From a virus (Duplodnaviria; Caudoviricetes), in IMG/VR virus record IMGVR_UViG_3300025016_000004: 64,000 nt of DNA. One strand, written 5' to 3'. Below are positions 1,958 to 63,419 of this stretch, piece after piece; the first letter of the stretch is position 1, and each line of letters begins with the position of its first letter. The position numbers and the translations under genes are program-made. The notes below the pieces were generated by a model, which did not search any database, was not told where the DNA came from, and saw only the letters and a list, made by a program, of their open reading frames with translations.

Positions 1958-4858
1958 TTAATGTTTTATTTTATCCATCAATTGGTTTATATTCATTTTT
2001 TCAATTAAATTAGTTCTTTTATTCCTTACAACTATCTCAGTATCAGCGGTAAAACATTTACCTACACCAGTTGGGCCTAAGAAGATAAATGAACCAATTG
2101 GTTTTTGACCACTTCTAATACCTAACCTACTACGTCTAATTGCTTTAGAAATCTTTTTAACGGCTTCATCTTGCCCTATAATATCTTTTTTTAAATCATC
2201 TTCAAGGGTTTTAAGGCTATTACTTTCAGTGGTTGTTAATTTAGTCAATGGTATTCCAGTCATAGTTGAAATTACTGTTTCTACCATATCTGAAGTGATA
2301 ATTGTACGTTTTTTTTCGTTTTTTGCTTCCCAATTATACATCAATTCATCAACTTTAATCTCATATTCCTTACGTCTATCTCTTAACATTGCGGCATCCT
2401 CAAAATCTTGTTTATTGATGATTTCTTTCATCTTTTCTTTGAGTTTCTGGATTTCAAGTTTTAATTCCTTAATTTCAATTGGAAGTTTGATATCAATATT
2501 GGTTGATGCACCAACTTCATCTAATATATCAATAGCTTTATCAGGCATTGCTCTATCAGAAATATACCTATCGGCCAATTTAACCATTAATTCAATAATT
2601 TCATTATCATAACTAACATTGTGATAAGTTTCGTAATTTTCTTTTATGTTTTTTAGAATCGTAACAGTTTCAAGTAAACTAGGTTCGTTAATTAATACTT
2701 GTTGAAATCTTCTGGTTAATGCACCATCCGTTTCAATATTTTCTCTAAATTCATCTAATGTTGTGGCACCAATTACTTGGATTTCACCTCTAGCCAACGC
2801 TGGTTTGAATATATTTGATGCGTCTAATGAACCTGATGCGTTACCCGCACCTACAAGTGTATGTAATTCATCAATGAAAAGGATGATATCAGGATTATCT
2901 TTTAATTCAGTTAGAATAACTTTCATTCTTTCTTCGAATTGGCCTCGATATTTAGTTCCAGCAACGATTGAAGCTAGGTCTAGTGCGTAAATCTTTTTAC
3001 CTAATAAGGGTTTTGGCGCATCACCTGAGTTTATCAATAGGGCTAACCCTTCAACTATTGATGTGTTATGTGTTACAATATAATTATCTGTAATATATAA
3101 ATGATAATCATCTTCAACCATTATACATTTAGACTCCTTTCGTCCAATTAACTCTATTTTAACAATATTATTCTTAAGTGTTTTAGAATATTGATAATTA
3201 CTTGATACCTTTTCTTTTTTTCTCTTTAATAAAAATAAATTTTTTGGTGAATGGTATCTAATAGTTAAAATATATGACACTTGACCTAATTTTTTAACAC
3301 CTTTATATGTATAAGAAGTTTGTTTATCGCTTATTTTTGCTATACCACCAATAGACCAAATTAATTCTTGTATGTCTTTAATTAATTGGTAACTAGCACT
3401 TGAATATTGTAATGTACCACTATTGGTTACAGTCCCATAAGAATCCATTAAACCTTGTATGAGAGATATTTTTTGGGATAATGAACCGTTTTTATATTTT
3501 TCTGGGATAAATTTATTATTGGCTTTAGTTTCAGTTAAGTTCAATAAATCAGTCTCCCCCAATAATGGGTGTATTCTATCATTTTTATAATATCTAGTTC
3601 TATCTTCAATTAATTTATCTTCGGATAAATTAATTCTAAACGTATTTGTTTTTATCCCATCACCATTTATATTTAATTTATAATCTGACCCAATTAATTC
3701 CTCAACAGTTTCAGGTATTTCAATATCATCAGTGGTAAGTGAAAGTTCGTATTTACCAAAATGACCATCACCTAATAATAACCCCATTAAATAAGGGTCA
3801 ATAATATAATCTAAATCTTTACCCCTATTTATATTTTCAGACACCAAAGGTAATTTTAACCTATAATTAGTATTTTCAATTTTATTTTTAATATCAACTG
3901 TATTAAGAATAGACCAAGATTTTTTTCTTTCTTTACCTACTGGCATACCATAAACTTTCCATAAATGCTCACCACAAGCTTCAGTGCTTCTGCCATCTTT
4001 AAATGTCATTCTATAAATATCCTTTACGCCTTGTGGGTAAACCCCAATTATTTTAGTAGTTTTACCTTCTGGAGTTAACACAAAATCACCGACACTTATT
4101 TCACCCATAGTTGTCCAACCATTAGGTGTTAATATTTTAGCGTCAAGTGGTTGGGCTTTACCAACGCCAGGTTCGCCAATCAATACAGGGTTGTTCTTTT
4201 TACGTCTTGCTAAGATTGCTGTAACCCTTTTAATTTCATTTTCACGCCCAACTACAGGGTCTATTTTATTTTCAGTTGCATTTTTTGATATATCTATACA
4301 GAATCCATCCAATGCTGGCGTTTTAGACGAAGCTTCAATTGTTGGTCCTCTTCGTTTTTTAGGGTTTAAAGGAGAATTTTCAAAATCCTCATGTGGAATA
4401 TTTGCTTCATTGGTAGGTTCATTCATATCTGACATAAGTTTCGTTTTAAATATTTTATAATTTAGGTTAAGTTTTATTAACATTTTTTGTGCCATACATT
4501 TGGTTCTTAATAACGCTAACATAATATGTGCCTCATTAAGTACAGAATCTTTCATCCTATCACGTTCTCTTTGCATTTCTTCAACTATAAATTTAGTTTC
4601 AGGGCTAGGCAATATTTCATTACTTGATGAGTATGCTCGATTATTATTTATAATACTATTGGTTAAGTGGGTGCTTAACTCTTCGAACAATCCATCAACA
4701 TCAAAATGTAATTTACGAAGAACGGAAACAACCACATTATGGTCATGCAGAATGATAGACATAAGGATATGTTCGGGCCTAAATTTATTATCTTCATAAT
4801 CTTTAGCCTGATATATCGCTTGTTGCATCAACTCCTTGGCTGTTTTGGTCATCTCCAT
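1958..4858 (-). CDS. clpC: ClpC/ClpB-family AAA+ chaperone, N-terminal part: Clp-N, NBD1 with cis intein, UVR-like middle domain, start of NBD2, then IntN
   Basis: [75 protein letters not shown]. The ORF stops 32 aa after the second Walker A. Confidence 0.92.
1961..2056 (-). mobile_element. N-terminal half of a split intein (IntN, 32 aa)
   Basis: [32 protein letters not shown]-stop directly after GPTGVGK; block A with Cys1. Confidence 0.85.
3065..4156 (-). mobile_element. Class-3 (Ala1) intein with LAGLIDADG domain in the ClpC NBD1 Walker A, 364 aa
   Basis: GEPGVGK|[14 protein letters not shown]...CGEHLW...KCIMV...IVTHN|TSIVEG. The WCT triplet is present. LAGLIDADG motifs GLLLGDG and GLMDSYG. 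Confidence 0.9.
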
Positions 4859-38006: not shown

Positions 38007-39812
38007 TTATTTATCAGTGTCTGGTTTTTTATAATTCCTAACCATTTTAGTTATTAATGGATTTCTAACGATATCATTTTCATCAAATTCAAAGAACCCA
38101 ATTTCATCGATATTTCTATGTCTATTCATGGCATCATATAACCCCGTTTTAGTGGCATCATCATATCTATCAGATTGGTCCATATCTCCAGAAACAATAT
38201 ATTTTGAACCGTACCCGATTCTAGTTAAAAGACTTTTCATTTGAGATGGTGACATATTTTGAGCTTCCTCACCGATTAAGATTGAATTATCTAAGGTTTT
38301 ACCTCTAATAAAACCCAAAGGTTCAACCATTAATTCTTTAGAATCTTCTAATTTCCTTCTAGCATCTTCACCTATAATTTTATCAACAATGTCGATTGAT
38401 GCAGCTAAATATGGCTCTAGTTTTTCTTTTAGATTTCCAGGTAAGAATCCTAAGTTCTCTTCAGCTTCAACGGCTGGTTTAACTATTAAAATTTTATTGA
38501 ATGAATTATCTGGGTCTTGAAGTAGTTCTAAAGCTACTGCGATAGCTACGAAAGAATTATGTGTAACTATGAAGTTATCTGTAATATATAAAGAATCTTT
38601 ACTATCAATTGAGATACATTTAGCTTCTGATTGACCTATAGGTTCTATGTCAGTGATATAACGTTTTGGTATATATTTAGTTTTAGGTTTAACTAATTGT
38701 GCTTTTCTTTTTAATTTAAATGGATTAACCTCTGGTGGTAGTGATATAGTTAAGGTGTATGCTTTTTTACATAAAATTTTTTCACCATTATTATCAATAT
38801 ATGAACCTATTTTATCGTTTAACTTAAAAACACCCCCTAAACTATTAACGATAAAACAAACTCCATCAATTAAATCTTTAGATGTGTTAGTGAAAAATGT
38901 GGAAGTACCATTCTTATTTACATAACCATCGGTATCCATTAACCCTCTTAATACTTCTAATCTAACTTTTTTAGTATTAAAAAGGTATTTATCTGGTATT
39001 TTTTTATTTATTGTTGCAATATTTTTTAAGTTTAATTCATTTAAATTATTTAAAATTTCATTATTATTATTTTCACCAATAATTGAGTATTGATACTTAC
39101 CACTTTTTTTATTTATTGTGTGATAATCATTTAATCTTTCGGAAATAAGTTCTACGATTTCAGTATCTTGAGTTGTAAATGTAATTCTATTTTGCGTTAA
39201 ACCACCATCACCTAATAAACATCCTAGAACATAGGGGTCAATAAATAATTCCTTTTCTTCAAATTCAATTGATTTAACTAATGGGATTGTGTGATTTTTA
39301 TCACCTCTACTGGTATTTAAGGTTTCCATTATTTCACTCAAAGGTTTTACATGACCCTTTCTGGGTGAGTAAAATCTTTTACCACCTTTTTTTACTCTAT
39401 AATTTCTATCGTAATATGTGTCAGTTAACCATAAATGCTCATCACAACAATCTGTATAAGAACTATCATTAAAATATACCCTATAAATTTCTTTAATACC
39501 TTGAGGGTGAATTTGAATAACTTTTGTTGGTTTACCTTCAGGGGTTAAAACTTCATCACCAACTCGTATCTCACCCATAGTAGTCCAACCGTTAGGTGTA
39601 AGTATTTTAGAATACAATGGTTGTGCTTTCCCTACGCCAGCAGGCCCAGAACAAAGAACAATTTCTTTCTCTTTAATTAAATTTACAAAATCTTTTTGTT
39701 TAGTGTTTTTGCACTTTAATCTTACCTTGAGTGGTAAGATTTTATTTACAGACCTTTCCTTTGTGGTTGGTTGTGTTGGTGTACTTGTTGTACTTCTTTT
39801 ACCTTTTGCCAT
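38007..39812 (-). CDS. phoH: PhoH-family ATPase with intein
   Basis: SGPAGVGK/SF, KPAVEAEENLGFLPG, PLGFIRGKTL, EEAQN, SGDMDQSD, IVRNPLI. Confidence 0.93.
   Translation of the reverse strand: MAKGKRSTTSTPTQPTTKERSVNKILPLKVRLKCKNTKQKDFVNLIKEKEIVLCSGPAGVGKAQPLYSKILTPNGWTTMGEIRVGDEVLTPEGKPTKVIQIHPQGIKEIYRVYFNDSSYTDCCDEHLWLTDTYYDRNYRVKKGGKRFYSPRKGHVKPLSEIMETLNTSRGDKNHTIPLVKSIEFEEKELFIDPYVLGCLLGDGGLTQNRITFTTQDTEIVELISERLNDYHTINKKSGKYQYSIIGENNNNEILNNLNELNLKNIATINKKIPDKYLFNTKKVRLEVLRGLMDTDGYVNKNGTSTFFTNTSKDLIDGVCFIVNSLGGVFKLNDKIGSYIDNNGEKILCKKAYTLTISLPPEVNPFKLKRKAQLVKPKTKYIPKRYITDIEPIGQSEAKCISIDSKDSLYITDNFIVTHNSFVAIAVALELLQDPDNSFNKILIVKPAVEAEENLGFLPGNLKEKLEPYLAASIDIVDKIIGEDARRKLEDSKELMVEPLGFIRGKTLDNSILIGEEAQNMSPSQMKSLLTRIGYGSKYIVSGDMDQSDRYDDATKTGLYDAMNRHRNIDEIGFFEFDENDIVRNPLITKMVRNYKKPDTDK
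38556..39626 (-). mobile_element. Class-3 (Ala1) LAGLIDADG intein in the PhoH Walker A, 357 aa
   Basis: GPAGVGK|[14 protein letters not shown]...CDEHLW...AKCISI...IVTHN|SFVA; WCT triplet; GCLLGDG and GLMDTDG. Confidence 0.9.
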
Positions 39813-56721: not shown

Positions 56722-57075
56722 TTAATCGTTATCTTTCACAAAAATTCCATCAACCATTTTACCAGTTCTTTTTGAAATTACATTATAAGCTGACTCTAAA
56801 CAATCTTCTATTGTTAAACCTTGTATTTCAGTTTGAATTATTAGTGTTACTAATATATCACCTATTGCATCTTTAATCTCATGTTCAGTGTTTTTTAAAT
56901 TACCTTTAGGACAAGTAAATTCAAGATTACCCCTTTCTTGAGCATTTAATGCCATGGTTAATTCACCAACTTCTTCTAGAGTTTTTGTGTGTTGGCTAAT
57001 TGGTGTGGCTTTATCAAAAATAGTTTTATCTTTAGCCCAATCAATCACTTTTATATTTAATTCTTTAAAATTCAT
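56722..57075 (-). CDS. mazG: MazG-like nucleotide pyrophosphohydrolase
   Basis: KTLEEVGEL, IKDAIGDILVTL, CLESAYNVISKRTGKMVDGIFVK. Confidence 0.82.
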   Translation of the reverse strand: MNFKELNIKVIDWAKDKTIFDKATPISQHTKTLEEVGELTMALNAQERGNLEFTCPKGNLKNTEHEIKDAIGDILVTLIIQTEIQGLTIEDCLESAYNVISKRTGKMVDGIFVKDND

Positions 57076-57679
57076 TTTTTTGTTTTAGTATATTAAGAGG
57101 TAATAACTTCTCTGTTTTTTTTTTATTATTTGACCACACTATTAATTCATCTAAAGTCACTCTACCATTATAATACGCCCATAATGTTGCGTTACCAAAT
57201 TGTTTATGTAACCATCTATGGTCAGATGGTGTTATTAATACTAAATTATTTGGGTCGTTATTATTAATATTACAATCTCTATGGTGGGTAATATACCCTT
57301 CTGGTAATTTATTAATATTTAACGTTTCAAATACAATTTTATGGTGTAACTTTATTCTACCAAATTTAGGTAAATAATCTAATTTATAACCACCGTCAGT
57401 TGTTACGTTTTCCCTAAAATTTGGGTTATTCTCACCTAAATATTCTTTTTTTCTAAAATTAGCAACACATTTAGTTGAACAGAAATAACCTTGACTTCTT
57501 TTATATCTTTTCTTAGAAGACTCTTTTAAATGAAACCCTACACCACATTGAGTACAGGTCGTATTAGGTTTACTTTTCCTAAAATTTGCTGAACACTCAA
57601 TACTACAAGTATGAGCGTTTTTAATTTGCTTCCCATATCTTTTAAATAGTTTACCACATATTTTACATTCTATTTCCAT
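57065..57679 (-). CDS. Free-standing HNH homing endonuclease with N-terminal CxxC zinc motifs
   Basis: CKICG, CSIEC, CTQCG, CSTKC; HHRDCNINNNDPNNL...HRWLH. Confidence 0.85.
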   Translation of the reverse strand: MEIECKICGKLFKRYGKQIKNAHTCSIECSANFRKSKPNTTCTQCGVGFHLKESSKKRYKRSQGYFCSTKCVANFRKKEYLGENNPNFRENVTTDGGYKLDYLPKFGRIKLHHKIVFETLNINKLPEGYITHHRDCNINNNDPNNLVLITPSDHRWLHKQFGNATLWAYYNGRVTLDELIVWSNNKKKTEKLLPLNILKQKNEF

Positions 57680-58329: not shown

Positions 58330-58776
58330 TTATACCTCTGTTTTTATTTTTTTATTTCTAAGTCGTTCTTGAAGTTTTTGAAATGCTTCATCCAATTCTT
58401 TTATATCTGTCTTATGTTTTTTATAAGCCTCTATTTTATCCGATTCATCATTTTTTAGAAATTTTTTCATCCTAGCACTAATCCAAAGTGGTCTACGGTA
58501 GTTATATCGATTACCATATAAATCTAAGGCTCCCTTCAATTCTTCATTATACTTCTCCGCTTCTTTTATTGTTTTAATATCTGTGATGGAAGACTTATTT
58601 TTCTGGTACATTAAGTACTGAAGTCTTTTTTTATTTTCTTCTAAGAATGAATACAACGCTTCTTCTCTTGTTAGTTCCATAGGTCTAACAAAATCTTTAT
58701 TTACCAACGAATATAATATCCTAATTATATAAATTGATATCTTTGATAATACACTTTTAATTGTTTTTATATTCAT
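58330..58776 (-). CDS. Hypothetical protein
   Basis: Tightly packed ORF; no motif recognised. Confidence 0.5.
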   Translation of the reverse strand: MNIKTIKSVLSKISIYIIRILYSLVNKDFVRPMELTREEALYSFLEENKKRLQYLMYQKNKSSITDIKTIKEAEKYNEELKGALDLYGNRYNYRRPLWISARMKKFLKNDESDKIEAYKKHKTDIKELDEAFQKLQERLRNKKIKTEV

Positions 58777-58807
58777 TTTTACTTAAAATATTCATAACGC
58801 AATTATA

Positions 58808-61147
58808 CTACTTTTCAGTGCCAAAAACAAGTTTTTTGTAATATTTAGCACGATTTTCTGTAACTTTATCCATTGAGTAGGTTTCAGCCACAGTATTATA
58901 TAAATTATCCCCAAGTATTTTTATCATCTCAGGGTTTTGTATCAATTTTTTAAGGTATTGATACCATTGTTTATGATTCCTATGAGAATCAACCAATAAA
59001 CCATTTTTAGTTAAATCAATTTCACCACCTTTTTGAAATGCATTTTGAATATCAATTGTATAAGGACCATAATTTTGAGCGATTAACGCCTTTTTATGGA
59101 AACCGCTTTCAATTACCTTTAATTGACTTTTAACTTTATTGAAGGTATGTTCAGTCAACGGTGCTAATGAAATATCAAATAAATTATAATTGGTCGCATA
59201 ATTGGTGATTGGTTTTGTCCAAACTCTTCTGTACGGCTCTTGCATAATGCTAGGGAATTCTTCAGTCACATATCTCAATAAATGCTCTTTATATTCTTTT
59301 GAAATTGTCGTATAATCATTGGTGAATATTTTTTCATATTCACACCAAACTGTTTCGTGTGGTAATATATCTCTTTGAGTTTGTTCACCTGTATCTTTGT
59401 TAATTGAATTAACCTTACCTCTAGTATCAAACCCACATAACACAAATTGTATTTTATCTAATAACCCGTCACCTTTTAATTTAGAAACTAATTGATTTAA
59501 TAATTTTAAATCTGCTAAATGACTATTCCCAATCCAAAATGCTTTACCATTTCGTCTAATATATATTATATGATTTTGAACTTCAACGCAATAAACATTT
59601 CCTTTATAATATTTTTTATATTGGTCATCTGTTTTAATTAAAGGGGTATTTTTATTATGTTTACTAACACTAGGGTGTTTTGTAAAATTAACAACTAATG
59701 AATCAAATTGGTTAGTGATTTTACGGCCTTTAATCATAGACGTTCTTTTACCTCGATTAGTAATGGTGGCTGAAATACCTAATTTTAATGCCATTTCTTG
59801 TAAATCATTGGCTAACGCTGATGAAGAGGTAAAAGCTCTAGTTCTACCATATTTGTTATTTTCAATATGACCATCACCATTAATAAACCATTCTAAAAAT
59901 ATCTTTAATTGCCTAGATGACAAATTTAATATTTCTTTAGGTATAAATTTTTCTGTAGCGGTACCAAAATCAGATAAATAATTCCATAATTGTTTATCAA
60001 AGACTCTCAATTGTTTTTTATCTTTAGTGTATTTTGGGTTAAATCCCATTTTAGTTAACAAATTAAACATATGCTCCAAATAATGATTATCTTTAGATTG
60101 AGCAATACCTACTTGATGTAAACCCTTACTTTTACTAGTCCAACCTTCAGCCATCCAAAAGCCGAAAAACTCTAACCAATCATTCATTTCTATCATAGTA
60201 TCAGTCCCATATTTTTCATATAAATCAACCCCATACTTATTTTTTTTATGTCCTTTTATAAAATTTTCATTATAAGCTTCTTCAAATTCGAACTTTAATT
60301 CAGTATAACTAGCTAAATTAGGTAATATAAAATATTCTACCTCATTACCAATCCAATTAGCATTTTTTCTAACATGAAAATTTTTACCATATATTTTTTC
60401 TGATTGTACTAACCCTAAATTCAATTTTTTATGAGTTAAATTCTTAGCTTCTGATGCGTACATATTATGGTTTGGTGTAACTTCATACTCAATTAACCCA
60501 TTTTTAGCACAATTTAATTCACCATCGAATGGTTCACATATATACCCACTTGGTTTATGATATTCCAAATAATTAGTTTCTGGGTTTAATGTTACTACTT
60601 TTTCAGTCTTATCTAACTCATCAAATCGTTTCCAACCACCATCAGTTAAAATTTCGGTATCTGGAGTCATACAACTCCCACCTAACCAACCAATTCTGAT
60701 TTTATCAGAAGGTTCTGGGTTTGAAGTGTATTGTTTTTCTGTTGGGTCAATAGCATTTGGTAAGACTACAACATTCTTGTTATGTTTTTTAATTTCATTT
60801 GCAAAAATTTCTGTTGTTGTTATAATATTCTCAGCAATTTTTAAATTATTAAGGATTTTTTTATCCAAATCATTATTTTTTATAATATGATATGCTGGGT
60901 GAGTCATATCTGGTAACCAATAATCATCTAAATCCATAACTGTAGGGATTCCTAATGATTTTAATTTTTCTAATAATCCTTCCATTTGGTCATAATTACC
61001 CAAAGCTCTATGATAATGAATTAGGTCGTATTGTTTTAACCAATCGTCATCATGTAATTTTGGCTCATATTCAATATCCACATGAAATTCATCTGGATAT
61101 AATTTTTCTAAATGTAAGTTTGGCTTGGTTGAACGAAAATAGCTCAA
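58808..61147 (-). CDS. GT4-like glycosyltransferase with intein; N-terminal strand lies in another frame (61144-61188)
   Basis: MDLDDYW, LPNAID, IGWLGGS/SH, DISLAPL, FNKVKSQLKVIE. Confidence 0.85.
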   Translation of the reverse strand: MSYFRSTKPNLHLEKLYPDEFHVDIEYEPKLHDDDWLKQYDLIHYHRALGNYDQMEGLLEKLKSLGIPTVMDLDDYWLPDMTHPAYHIIKNNDLDKKILNNLKIAENIITTTEIFANEIKKHNKNVVVLPNAIDPTEKQYTSNPEPSDKIRIGWLGGSCMTPDTEILTDGGWKRFDELDKTEKVVTLNPETNYLEYHKPSGYICEPFDGELNCAKNGLIEYEVTPNHNMYASEAKNLTHKKLNLGLVQSEKIYGKNFHVRKNANWIGNEVEYFILPNLASYTELKFEFEEAYNENFIKGHKKNKYGVDLYEKYGTDTMIEMNDWLEFFGFWMAEGWTSKSKGLHQVGIAQSKDNHYLEHMFNLLTKMGFNPKYTKDKKQLRVFDKQLWNYLSDFGTATEKFIPKEILNLSSRQLKIFLEWFINGDGHIENNKYGRTRAFTSSSALANDLQEMALKLGISATITNRGKRTSMIKGRKITNQFDSLVVNFTKHPSVSKHNKNTPLIKTDDQYKKYYKGNVYCVEVQNHIIYIRRNGKAFWIGNSHLADLKLLNQLVSKLKGDGLLDKIQFVLCGFDTRGKVNSINKDTGEQTQRDILPHETVWCEYEKIFTNDYTTISKEYKEHLLRYVTEEFPSIMQEPYRRVWTKPITNYATNYNLFDISLAPLTEHTFNKVKSQLKVIESGFHKKALIAQNYGPYTIDIQNAFQKGGEIDLTKNGLLVDSHRNHKQWYQYLKKLIQNPEMIKILGDNLYNTVAETYSMDKVTENRAKYYKKLVFGTEK
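59525..60673 (-). mobile_element. LAGLIDADG intein in the glycosyltransferase, 383 aa, penultimate Gly
   Basis: WLGGS|CMTPDTEILTDGGW...VTPNH...GFWMAEG...FINGDG...VYCVEV...WIGN|SHLAD. Confidence 0.9.
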
Positions 61148-61227
61148 CTTACCCCAGTACGGTCTGAAGGGACTACAAGTATCTTCATTTTTTGACCTAC
61201 TGGGGTATCAATTTTGTTTGTTTTCAT
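61144..61227 (-). CDS. Recoded replacement N-terminus of the glycosyltransferase (27 aa, or 14 aa from ATG 61188), out of frame with the gene body
   Basis: MKTNKIDTPVGQKMKILVVPSDRTGVS-stop; body continues (TTG) AGC TAT TTT CGT = SYFR. Confidence 0.75.
   Translation of the reverse strand: MKTNKIDTPVGQKMKILVVPSDRTGVS
61150..61207 (-). other. Strong RNA hairpin starting immediately after the HE stop codon and enclosing the replacement AUG
   Basis: TACCCCAGTA-GGTC ... GACC-G-TACTGGGGTA (14 bp, one bulge) plus inner TGAAG/CTTCA. Confidence 0.75.
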
Positions 61228-61975
61228 AATATTTTATTATTTCGTTTATTAGTTCTGGGTTTCTTTTATAATCACTTTCCCAAATAACTTTACTATTATA
61301 ACCATTTTTTTTCGCTAAGTAAAGCTTTTTATTATCACATAACCAAATTTCTTTGGCTGTTTTACTTTTTTTCTTATGCCAATACTCAGCATTATATTTT
61401 TTTGGGTTACAATGCCAATAATCACCATTATACTCTATTAATAAATTAAATTGTGGGACGTAAATATCAAAAATTTTACTTCCTATTCTATAATTAGGTT
61501 CACAATTAATACCTACTTCACTTAATTTATTTATTATTTCATCTTCAGCTTTAGACCTATTATAACTTTTTAATTCACCATTCATTATCCTTTCTTTCAT
61601 CAACTTACTCATTTTAACCCTAACACCTTCCATTTCACCACTTGCCCATAATTTTTTTTTCATATCACTAAACATTTTTCTATATTTTGGTTTAGACATG
61701 TGATTACTGGTGGAAACCCCTATTTTTGATTTACTTATCTTGTTTTTAGTTTCTTCAGTATGGGTTTTATTATAAAATGGGTTACCAACACCTTTTTGTT
61801 TTTTTAATGAACATTTTTTACATATACCTTTCTTTTTTAAATTTCTAGCTAAATAATATTCTTTTGAGGCTTCAACTAATATTTTATTTTTACATAAATG
61901 GCATTTGTAAAAAGAATACCATTTCTGGTTATCAACATTAAATTTGAAGTGTTTATATTTTTCATTTGATTCCAT
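61208..61975 (-). CDS. Free-standing homing endonuclease, DUF559/Vsr-like
   Basis: SKAEDEI, FDIYVPQFNLLIEYNGDYWHCNP, VIWESDY; N-terminal CHLC/CKKC. Confidence 0.85.
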   Translation of the reverse strand: MESNEKYKHFKFNVDNQKWYSFYKCHLCKNKILVEASKEYYLARNLKKKGICKKCSLKKQKGVGNPFYNKTHTEETKNKISKSKIGVSTSNHMSKPKYRKMFSDMKKKLWASGEMEGVRVKMSKLMKERIMNGELKSYNRSKAEDEIINKLSEVGINCEPNYRIGSKIFDIYVPQFNLLIEYNGDYWHCNPKKYNAEYWHKKKSKTAKEIWLCDNKKLYLAKKNGYNSKVIWESDYKRNPELINEIIKYYENKQN

Positions 61976-62004
61976 AAATTATTTATTAATAAATATGGAA
62001 AAAT

Positions 62005-62076
62005 TTATAAAAAGTTTAAGTATGATACACCTGTTCTGTCACTTGGGACAACTAAGATTTTTATTTTTTTACTCAT
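62005..62076 (-). pseudogene. Displaced original 5' end (stub) of the glycosyltransferase gene
   Basis: MSKKIKILVVPSDRTGVSY then LNFL-stop. Confidence 0.88.
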
Positions 62077-62125
62077 TCTAAAATTCACTTAAACAAGTAT
62101 AAGGAAATAAAAAGAATAAGTAAAT

Positions 62126-62153
62126 AAAAAAACCCACTTAAAGTGGGTTTTTT
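62126..62153. terminator. Bidirectional terminator
   Basis: AAAAAAACCCACTT-a-AAGTGGGTTTTTT. Confidence 0.75.
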
Positions 62154-62156
62154 ATA

Positions 62157-62750
62157 TTATTTAGTTGATTTTGGTGTAACTTTTATCTTACCTTCTTTGA
62201 TAAGAGTGGTAATAGTCCTTTTAATTGTAGTTTCAGTTAAATTTTTGGTAAAGGTAGTAGCCATAAAATCTAATAATTTATCTTGAATCTTTTTATCTAA
62301 CTCAGCTTCAGTCATTGTAATTAACATTTGACCTTTTGAATTTACGATTGTAGTTTCATTAATTTGAGAAACTTGAGTTTGTGTAGGTTGTACATATTGA
62401 GCTTGTGGTGCTATTTGTGGTCTAACTAATTTCTTAACATCATCTAAAGAAAATGTTGGCCCACCACCACTAGCCATTTCAAATTTAGGTATTGGGTTTT
62501 CTACCATAGCTCTTTTTATTGCTTCAGGCATTTTACTTTTTTCTAAATTTTGATATGTATTACTGATTTGTCTAGCTGGGTTTGTATGAGGTGTTGCGCC
62601 ATCTGGCAACGCTTCTAATAAATCAACATTACCCGTTAATGTTTCATTTATTATTGTATGGTCAACTTTAAAGTTCGTATTATTAACTTTATCCATTACA
62701 GCTTTGGCCCCACCAAGCATTGCTTCTAATCTTTCTTTACTTACGTCCAT
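62157..62750 (-). CDS. Hypothetical protein, putative internal head protein
   Basis: IINE and QINE motifs; Gln/Pro-rich linker. Confidence 0.55.
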   Translation of the reverse strand: MDVSKERLEAMLGGAKAVMDKVNNTNFKVDHTIINETLTGNVDLLEALPDGATPHTNPARQISNTYQNLEKSKMPEAIKRAMVENPIPKFEMASGGGPTFSLDDVKKLVRPQIAPQAQYVQPTQTQVSQINETTIVNSKGQMLITMTEAELDKKIQDKLLDFMATTFTKNLTETTIKRTITTLIKEGKIKVTPKSTK

Positions 62751-62753
62751 TTT

Positions 62754-63419
62754 TTAATTCTTTATATTTTCTATTTCCTCTTGGTCAGTATCTTGGTTAT
62801 TAACTTGGTTATTAACTTGGTTACTAACTCGGTTACCTTTTTCATCCGCTACTTTATCGCTATATAAATTACTATATTGGTAATCTTTAGCTGTTGGATA
62901 ATTAGGTTGAGGCTTTTCTTCATTATCAGCTCTATTTCTAACTAGTGGCTCATTAGTTTTTTTAGTATCTAAATTACTTTGCCAGTTAGCATGTCTTTGT
63001 CTATATTTATCTAAATTTTTATCACTAAATATAGCCATATTAGCCATACCATCATTATTTGGTATGTTAAGTGTTTTATCACCTAAAGCGTTATATAACT
63101 CATCAGGTGGTGCATAAAACGTAAAGTTAGTGGGGGTTATTGTCATTTTATTAGTTAAAAATGTTTTCCAACGAATTATTTTACCGTTTTTATCCCTTTT
63201 TAAATTTGGCCCAGATATTTGATAAACCCTAACTGCGTTATTACCTTTAGATGTTTTACCCATTGCCAAAATTTGACAATACCTAGGCCCACTATTACTA
63301 TCTATACTGTTATCTTCATAACTAATATTAACCGCACGATTGTTATTTATTACATCTTGGATGGTTTTTATATCAGTTCCTTCTAATATAACCTCTTTAT
63401 ATAAATTGTAAAGCTTCAT
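62754..63419 (-). CDS. WYL-like domain protein with low-complexity C-terminal tail
   Basis: AVNISYED...GPRYCQILAMGKTSKGNNAVRVYQ...WKTFLTNKM; tail NQVNNQVNNQD. Confidence 0.45.
   Translation of the reverse strand: MKLYNLYKEVILEGTDIKTIQDVINNNRAVNISYEDNSIDSNSGPRYCQILAMGKTSKGNNAVRVYQISGPNLKRDKNGKIIRWKTFLTNKMTITPTNFTFYAPPDELYNALGDKTLNIPNNDGMANMAIFSDKNLDKYRQRHANWQSNLDTKKTNEPLVRNRADNEEKPQPNYPTAKDYQYSNLYSDKVADEKGNRVSNQVNNQVNNQDTDQEEIENIKN

Follow-up and report, generated by a model that had tools for sequence, protein, structure and literature searches.

The glycosyltransferase locus

We analyzed the 5′ end of a glycosyltransferase (GT) gene in a stretch of viral DNA of 64,000 nucleotides (nt), IMG/VR record IMGVR_UViG_3300025016_000004, which is referred to here as the window; all positions are numbered in this window, and all features of the locus are located on the minus strand. 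Matches to PHROG families elsewhere in the window, including portal, protease and terminase-like proteins, show that the source is a phage. What lies at the start of the GT gene is quite probably a mobile homing-endonuclease cassette with a candidate programmed ribosomal hop of 5 nt. An earlier note on this DNA had already pointed out that the beginning of the GT gene is present twice, as a short stub upstream and as a recoded copy downstream of an endonuclease gene.

In the direction of transcription, a gene for a protein of 197 amino acids (aa) (62750-62157) precedes the stub and is followed by a terminator-like hairpin detected in a terminator scan (62127-62153); weak Rfam matches to leaders and small RNAs at these positions represent this hairpin only. 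The stub (62005-62076) represents the GT gene's original 5′ end. It appears in the list of open reading frames (ORFs) as 23 codons translated into MSKKIKILVVPSDRTGVSYLNFL, followed by a stop. Alignment with native genes, i.e., genes without a gap, showed that its sequence is native through the Tyr codon at 62022-62020, after which LNFL and the stop follow, and that it agrees with the native starts MSKKIK[VI]LVVPSDRTGVSY of the relatives L001-L003.

The next gene encodes a free-standing homing endonuclease of 255 aa (61208-61975), identified by a Pfam match to NUMOD3 (E=3e-7, above the cut-off) and by a PHROG homing endonuclease match. The label DUF559, given to it in the earlier note, had to be dropped, since Pfam contains no DUF559 match for this protein. 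From a sub-threshold match to MTES_1575, a PD-(D/E)XK restriction-like family (22.3 bits, cut-off 38.2), and from a reading of the motifs, the nuclease core appears to be Vsr/PD-(D/E)XK-like. The 3′ end of the endonuclease gene is overlapped by 20 nt by the ORF for the cassette N-peptide (61147-61227, with the stop extending to 61144). Its 27 codons, translated into MKTNKIDTPVGQKMKILVVPSDRTGVS, consist of a 14-aa extension and a replacement of GT codons 1-13. Folding and covariation revealed a conserved RNA hairpin within this ORF (61150-61207). The last codon is AGT (Ser, 61147-61149), the putative take-off codon, and the stop TGA (61144-61146) follows directly 3′ of it. The last base of this stop is also the first base of AGC (61142-61144), the putative landing codon, which would be reached from AGT by a +5 hop. 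The GT body begins at the resume codon TAT (61141-61139) and comprises 777 codons including an intein (58808-61141); the ORF lister had called the body as 779 codons in a different frame, with a TTG start at 61147. A contig covering positions 61000-62200 with zero differences was found in each of four groundwater/aquifer runs; the frame break is thus no artefact of this record, with the caveat that the record itself may derive from these samples. Among the sequencing runs listed, none is recorded as RNA.

The AlphaFold model of the native GT L003 (predicted local distance difference test, pLDDT, 93.4) has a two-Rossmann GT-B fold (GT4-like), and Foldseek searches with this model returned MshA, BshA, PimA, GlgM and PglA (E 1e-15 to 1e-10); the Pfam match of the GT to Glyco_transf_4 is weak and below the cut-off. 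By the predicted structure, the host gene is a GT-B (GT4-like) glycosyltransferase. In the model, the N-peptide corresponds to strand beta-1 together with the loop that precedes helix 1, and invariant residues flank the gap on both sides (S12, D13 and G16 before, R21 after). The exteins of the window GT are 80% identical to L003. The intein contains a LAGLIDADG endonuclease domain (59525-60673; Pfam LAGLIDADG_3, E=3e-11) and is located at the conserved GGS|SH motif, its boundaries being derived also from the native consensus GWLGGSSHLHD. Since the intein sits in the same gene, the window GT enzyme would need protein splicing in addition to the hop. Bodies of about 770 aa are likewise present in the alleles L082 and L177/L182.

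Gapped alleles and the conserved hairpin

Relatives of the GT were retrieved from IMG/VR (80 sequences). In most of them the protein begins MSKKIKVLVVPSDRTGVS-YFRS... unbroken, and native relatives read TGV[SG]-[YKF]FRS without interruption at the place where the window contains 5 extra nt and a change of frame. The window sequence runs ...GGG GTA AGT TGA, and the body resumes with TAT TTT CGT 5 bases past the AGT (AGT-TG-AGC-TAT). Four of the 80 relatives are broken at the same place, one by an 11-nt insert and the others by 6-nt inserts, each starting with a stop. Further alleles were collected by two routes, with DNA patterns run on viral and metagenome contigs and with a protein profile of the endonuclease that was unconditioned on GT codons. 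The first DNA pattern imposed the CGT, the GGG and the stop and can therefore not test the conservation of these codons; among the alleles recovered via the endonuclease profile, where this bias is removed, the Arg codon is variable. The pooled set, which comes from metagenomes, comprises 58 distinct gapped and 62 native alleles with 24 distinct types of take-off codon and gap. A megablast search of deposited phages found no close relative of the locus, and the sole tblastn match there was a 35%-identical GT of a 735-kb uncultured phage.

Comparison of these alleles established a family-wide pattern. The gaps are +5 to +13 nt long, nine types being in frame 2, three in frame 1 and 12 in frame 0. 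The take-off codon is solely GGT, GGC, AGC or AGT in the 58 gapped alleles, and a stop directly follows it in 24/24 gap types (among unbiased alleles TGA 20, TAA 14, TAG 1). Before the resume codon, 23 of the 24 types carry a landing codon that corresponds to the take-off codon, GGN for Gly and AGC for Ser; a Ser take-off is combined with an AGC landing in five of the six Ser gap types. By standard wobble rules, AGC and AGT are both read by one tRNA-Ser. Sublineages with near-identical N-peptides vary in their gaps (AGC..AGC with +7, +8 and +9; GGT..GGT with +11, +12 and +12). The nearest cassette relative of the window, L167, has GGT TAA GGA, and compared with this allele the AGT take-off of the window goes together with an AGC landing in a new register. 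The interiors of the gaps are without any G (A 24, C 11, T 9) and thus contain no premature landing triplets. A -1 frameshift was rejected as a candidate, since it would insert 2-4 residues and require re-pairing on non-cognate triplets.

With half of the gap types in frame, one could imagine that RNA editing, tiny splicing or transcriptional slippage removes or recodes the gap ahead of translation, or that the in-frame gaps are read via a suppressor tRNA of the phage. A scan of positions 58500-62800 against Rfam (E up to 1) gave only the terminator hairpin, and a group I or group II intron was rejected because no ribozyme core was found; moreover, no known ribozyme would fit into 5-13 nt. Slippage would call for a homopolymer run, and none is present at the gap. 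A suppressor tRNA would be confronted with TAA, TGA and TAG, all of which are used as stop, and could not serve the 12 out-of-frame types. We consider removal or readthrough of the gap very unlikely.

The GT itself stays intact. All gapped alleles with a long enough locus encode a full-length body of 377-422 aa, or of 776-777 aa with the intein, and in about 30 complete gapped alleles the bodies of about 385 codons are free of stops and frameshifts. The ratio of nonsynonymous to synonymous substitution rates (dN/dS) of the body is 0.04-0.2 across gapped alleles and 0.04-0.09 in close gapped pairs at dS 0.2-0.9, which shows purifying selection. In about 50 cassette alleles the core motif of the N-peptide is kept through many synonymous changes, which supports the earlier proposal that the replacement is selected at the protein level. 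In some alleles the endonuclease has been lost, yet N-peptide and gap are still present and the body is intact. Together, these data make it quite improbable that the cassette broke the GT and that the remainder consists of undecayed relics of a dead or dying gene, a possibility to which the truncated endonuclease of the window, the persistence of the dead stub and the often recent arrival of cassettes would lend some weight.

The hairpin is located 5′ of the gap. Its outer stem is formed by 61207-61194, located in the extension, and 61164-61150; in the inner stems, 61187-61183 is paired with 61169-61165, and 61180-61178 with 61174-61172. The end of the 3′ arm lies one base ahead of the take-off codon AGT. 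In the window, 22 of the 24 model pairs form and the fold reaches -30 kcal/mol (z = -4.6). The same hairpin is present in all gapped alleles, where the mean minimum free energy is -29.7 kcal/mol compared to -13.1 kcal/mol in natives. RNAalifold on a plain MAFFT alignment recovered seven pairs only, the 5′ arms of sublineages being out of register there; the hairpin was instead assessed by per-sequence folding, a gapless subset and a covariance-model alignment. In the gapless alignment of 17 sequences 81% of the cells are paired, versus 36-47% with a slid partner. The covariance-model alignment of 47 distinct sequences yielded 79% versus 31-45%, although this alignment is fitted to the structure and favours the pairing counts. 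Compensatory changes occur in 13 of the 24 pairs in these 47 sequences, and the covariation score is 0.248 compared to 0.03-0.07 for slid partners (0/500 shuffles reach 0.248).

In the Thr, Gly and Val codons immediately preceding the take-off codon, the third base covaries with the extension; covarying partners near the take-off codon are GGA with TCC and GGC with GCC. The sequence GGGGT before the take-off codon is enriched (29/35 versus 5/60). As a candidate for a prfB-like Shine-Dalgarno stimulator it was dropped, since its G residues pair and covary with the CCCC of the hairpin. The N-peptide is 26-29 aa long in gapped alleles and 17-22 aa in natives. The conserved TPVG/SPLNG motif of the extension coincides with the 5′ arm, so that, with regard to a stimulatory nascent peptide as in gene 60, selection on the peptide and on the RNA are inseparable there. 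Neither a stem-loop holding the take-off codon on its 5′ side nor a Shine-Dalgarno-like element within the gap was found, the gaps being too short for either; the sole conserved structure is the 5′ hairpin with the take-off codon at its 3′ foot.

A gene that is split by termination and reinitiation would produce the 27-aa N-peptide and the body as two polypeptides which assemble non-covalently, comparable to the endonuclease-split nrdA and to T4 gp39/gp60. In the window the body would start with the TTG over the TGA, and TTGA is indeed an overlapping stop and start; insertions of MobA and MobE are, in addition, known to give split proteins with added tails. Most alleles, however, have no start near the resume codon (GGT TAA GGA AAA TTT...), and their first ATG or GTG is located 9-14 codons further on, beyond the conserved KFRS..PH motif. 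The 27-aa peptide would have to provide the central beta-1 strand in trans, and the matched landing codons, the G-free gaps and the hairpin ending at the take-off codon would be left unexplained. We therefore regard a split gene as unlikely.

Recoded codons and mobility of the cassette

The stub and the replacement both encode KILVVPSDRTGVS, with 13/13 residues identical. At the DNA level 16/39 nt and 10/13 codons differ and every difference is synonymous, as had been described in the earlier note. The coordinates given there for the replacement (61185-61147) hold, and those given for the stub (62076-62005) are those of the whole stub ORF, in which the 13 shared codons occupy 62061-62023. Stub and replacement show 1.23 nt differences per identical-aa codon. 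A comparison of the whole window GT gene with relatives free of the endonuclease gave 0.33-0.53 differences per identical-aa codon at dS 1.0-2.1; the segment exceeds this gene-wide level 2-4 times, and its divergence is thus beyond chance or saturation. Pairs of native alleles differ in the same 13-codon segment by 0.68 per codon on average, and 1.23 is reached by 0.7% of the pairs. Cassette copies differ from natives by 0.81 per codon. Compared with the remaining cassette copies, the window's copy shows no more than 0.38 nt differences per codon, which does not support an origin of the recoding in place: the copy belongs to the cassette lineage and arrived with the endonuclease.

Among the 16 changed bases, 12 are located in hairpin pairs, three in the AGT take-off codon, and one is unpaired. 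The stub base would disrupt 11 of the 12 hairpin-paired changes, and placing the stub codons in the replacement weakens the fold from -27.1 to -11.6 kcal/mol. The codon divergence is high because of the hairpin pairs (12/16) and the take-off codon (3/16); its excess is best explained by selection for the recoding signals of the cassette lineage and not by dodging of the nuclease in place.

The synonymous changes had originally been read as serving chiefly the escape from the endonuclease, with the replacement acting directly as the gene's new start. The divergence is real and above the gene-wide level, and the cassette-native value lies somewhat above the native-native one, both of which would agree with an escape. 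The copy, however, ends in TGA (61146-61144) and its register is offset by 5 nt from that of the body, and 15 of the 16 changes are already accounted for by the hairpin or the take-off codon. Furthermore, the codons GAC CGT ACN GGG GTN are also present in three native gap-free alleles. In the MobA system, polymorphisms alone failed to block nicking and the insert blocked it (Bonocora et al., 2011, as cited in 10.1101/2022.08.31.505936). We consider it very unlikely that the recoding served chiefly the escape from the nuclease and that the replacement acts as the direct start of the gene. The accompanying suggestion that the target of the nuclease lies within these codons is plausible, since the stubs of two loci end at codon 14 and the gap separates codon 13 from codon 14.

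On the GT tree, the gapped state requires 25 changes, at least 18 of which are forced by well-supported branches, compared with three changes on the endonuclease tree; the gap thus follows the endonuclease tree and not the host-gene tree. In near-identical pairs of gapped and native alleles, identity is 92-100% in the body, 77-88% in the first 60-120 nt past the gap and 51-67% in the 13 N-terminal codons. This drop in identity around the gap is a short co-conversion tract of 60-120 nt. The endonuclease is under purifying selection (dN/dS among relatives 0.10-0.40), and the block IEY.GDYWHCNP is invariant in its alignment. A profile of the endonuclease and its relatives touches the I-TevI DNA-binding domain and resolvase-type helix-turn-helix domains. 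Distant members of the endonuclease family precede ungapped GT genes with short native N-termini. The endonucleases of L217/L218 and L228/L240/L248 nest in the gapped clade, yet they also precede ungapped GT genes with short native N-termini, which suggests a secondary loss of the gap and the extension.

The window endonuclease is without the N-terminal helix-turn-helix (about 40 aa) of its 290-325-aa relatives and may be a crippled copy from an untidy insertion. The surviving stub suggests that the left junction is untidy. A second stub, found in the lineage L082/L083/L092/L145, ends at the same Tyr codon and has a different left junction; the differing junctions ruled out that both stub-bearing loci go back to one old event. 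In this second lineage the endonuclease keeps the helix-turn-helix and shifts frame after an A run (KKKKYKRI followed by two stops), about 200-300 nt downstream of the stub. This frame change may mark a pseudogene or a slippage site, or may be due to an error in sequencing.

An AT-rich stretch of 35 nt (61979-62013) lies between the stub and the start of the endonuclease gene. With one gap, it recurs on another contig of equal depth in four runs and is probably repeated elsewhere in the phage genome; it might be a promoter-like motif. Approximately 1.1 kb downstream of the GT gene, another free-standing HNH endonuclease gene is present (57065-57679, minus strand; Pfam HNH_3). Two large ORFs (1958-4858 and 38007-39812, both on the minus strand) have composite PHROG matches, in which segments resembling a terminase, primase or helicase loader are combined with protease or PhoH, a pattern that would fit inserted inteins.

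A candidate ribosomal hop and its relation to known systems

We propose that the cassette consists of the endonuclease gene, the N-peptide ORF, with an extension of about 10-14 aa and the re-encoded GT codons 1-13, and an untranslated gap, which would sit exactly at the presumed endonuclease cut site of cassette-free alleles. With AGU in the P site and UGA waiting in the A site, the peptidyl-tRNA-Ser would most likely release AGU, slide 5 nt and re-pair at AGC, and translation would continue at TAT. The product, ...RTGVS-YFRS..., would be the same as in unbroken native relatives. At the time of the hop, the 3′ arm of the hairpin would be inside the ribosome and the 5′ arm already outside, and re-zipping of the stem behind the ribosome probably pulls the mRNA forward and aids the parting of codon and anticodon. 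Re-pairing would take place at the first cognate triplet, none being available earlier since the gap is free of G. One such hop mechanism would cover the matched codons, the stops, all frames and the G-free gaps. The gap probably destroys the nuclease site and would thereby make the carrier immune; by analogy with MobA, it may be the gap rather than the synonymous changes that protects the carrier from its own nuclease.

Several points weigh against the hop. The support for it is wholly comparative, and the covariance-model alignment carries the bias towards pairing mentioned above. For GGT-to-GGA pairs, either two-out-of-three pairing or a tRNA-Gly able to decode all four GGN codons would be required. 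The sole mismatch of take-off and landing codon, AGT taa GGC in L054/L090, concerns the first base; it may require a G-U pair at codon position 1, or this allele may work poorly. The in-frame +6 alleles are also compatible with readthrough by a suppressor tRNA, and the TTG overlapping the TGA makes termination-reinitiation possible for the window allele alone. In addition, what serves as the landing codon could partly be left over from codon 13 of the recipient. The window copy of the cassette may be decaying, since its N-terminal DNA-binding domain is missing.

With these points considered, we lean towards a natural and portable stop-hop module that would work in any frame and without signals in the gap; in it, an upstream 'spring' hairpin is followed by the RGY take-off codon with its stop, then by 2-10 bases free of G and by the matched landing codon. 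Endonucleases would carry this module to immunise their own target while the host protein stays whole.

The closest counterpart is the bypass of T4 gene 60, where the MobA homing-endonuclease element is the carrier (Manning & Atkins, bioRxiv 10.1101/2022.08.31.505936). In both systems an ORF downstream of the endonuclease gene combines a new N-terminal extension with insert-derived host codons ('homR'), the take-off codon (often Gly) is immediately followed by a stop, a matched or wobble-matched landing codon lies beside the resume codon, and the gap is without premature landing triplets. Likewise, both have an upstream stem-loop; for gene 60, this 5′ stem-loop has been proposed to drive forward movement (10.1101/2024.12.09.627546). 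In both, too, the endonuclease is progressively lost and the gap remains. They differ in the length of the gap, which is 5-13 nt here and about 50 nt in gene 60. The GT cassette has no take-off stem-loop in the gap and no room for an internal Shine-Dalgarno sequence, its hairpin being located wholly 5′. The host gene is a GT-B glycosyltransferase instead of a topoisomerase II gene, and the upstream remnant is a dead stub of 18 codons instead of a working half-protein. The endonuclease is NUMOD3 plus Vsr-like instead of MobA, no sequence homology between the two cassettes was seen, and, unlike in gene 60, we infer the hop in the GT gene from the comparison of sequences.

Free-standing homing endonucleases of T-even phages (MobE in nrdA, SegH, Vsr-like replacements) also adjoin their target gene and show a sporadic distribution, co-conversion of flanks and occasional gene splitting with added tails. 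In contrast to the endonuclease-split genes, the continuity of the host protein is apparently restored here at translation and not by assembly of two proteins. The mitochondrial byp inserts of Magnusiomyces capitatus (27-55 nt) are likewise mobile inserts in coding sequence that are neutralised by bypassing, and, as here, a two-out-of-three match of the landing codon with the take-off codon is tolerated; the byps differ in being mitochondrial and much longer, in having an unused sense codon in the A site, and in lacking an endonuclease.

Engineered stop-hops offer a further parallel. A review from 2016 (PMC5009743) stated that no natural in-frame stop-hop was known, shorter counterparts with matched codons having long been expected. 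The arrangement GGT-TAA-GGN is identical in the stop-hops described there, in which, with a slow stop in the A site, the tRNA of the P site pairs anew with a matched codon. Those constructs are of low efficiency, whereas the GT cassette is natural and conserved, has a dedicated hairpin and occurs in all three frames.

Apart from the byp inserts, established natural bypassing is limited to T4 gene 60 and its homologues, which are confined to a single topoisomerase gene, and the gene 60 cassette has been called unique to this gene (10.1101/2022.08.31.505936). A literature search on bypassing, glycosyltransferases and homing endonucleases found no paper describing the GT cassette. If the hop is real, the cassette would be a natural stop-hop of the short, matched-codon kind that has been awaited (PMC5009743), and its dozens of natural variants, with gaps of 5-13 nt, two take-off amino acids, three stops and a covarying hairpin, constitute a mutational series. 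Gene callers will label gapped glycosyltransferases as truncated or as pseudogenes. The cassette would further be a second, independent pairing of a homing endonuclease with a bypass element as a means of self-immunity, and short programmed bypassing would be a recurring device of phages, compared with the near-unique oddity as which gene 60 stands in the literature.

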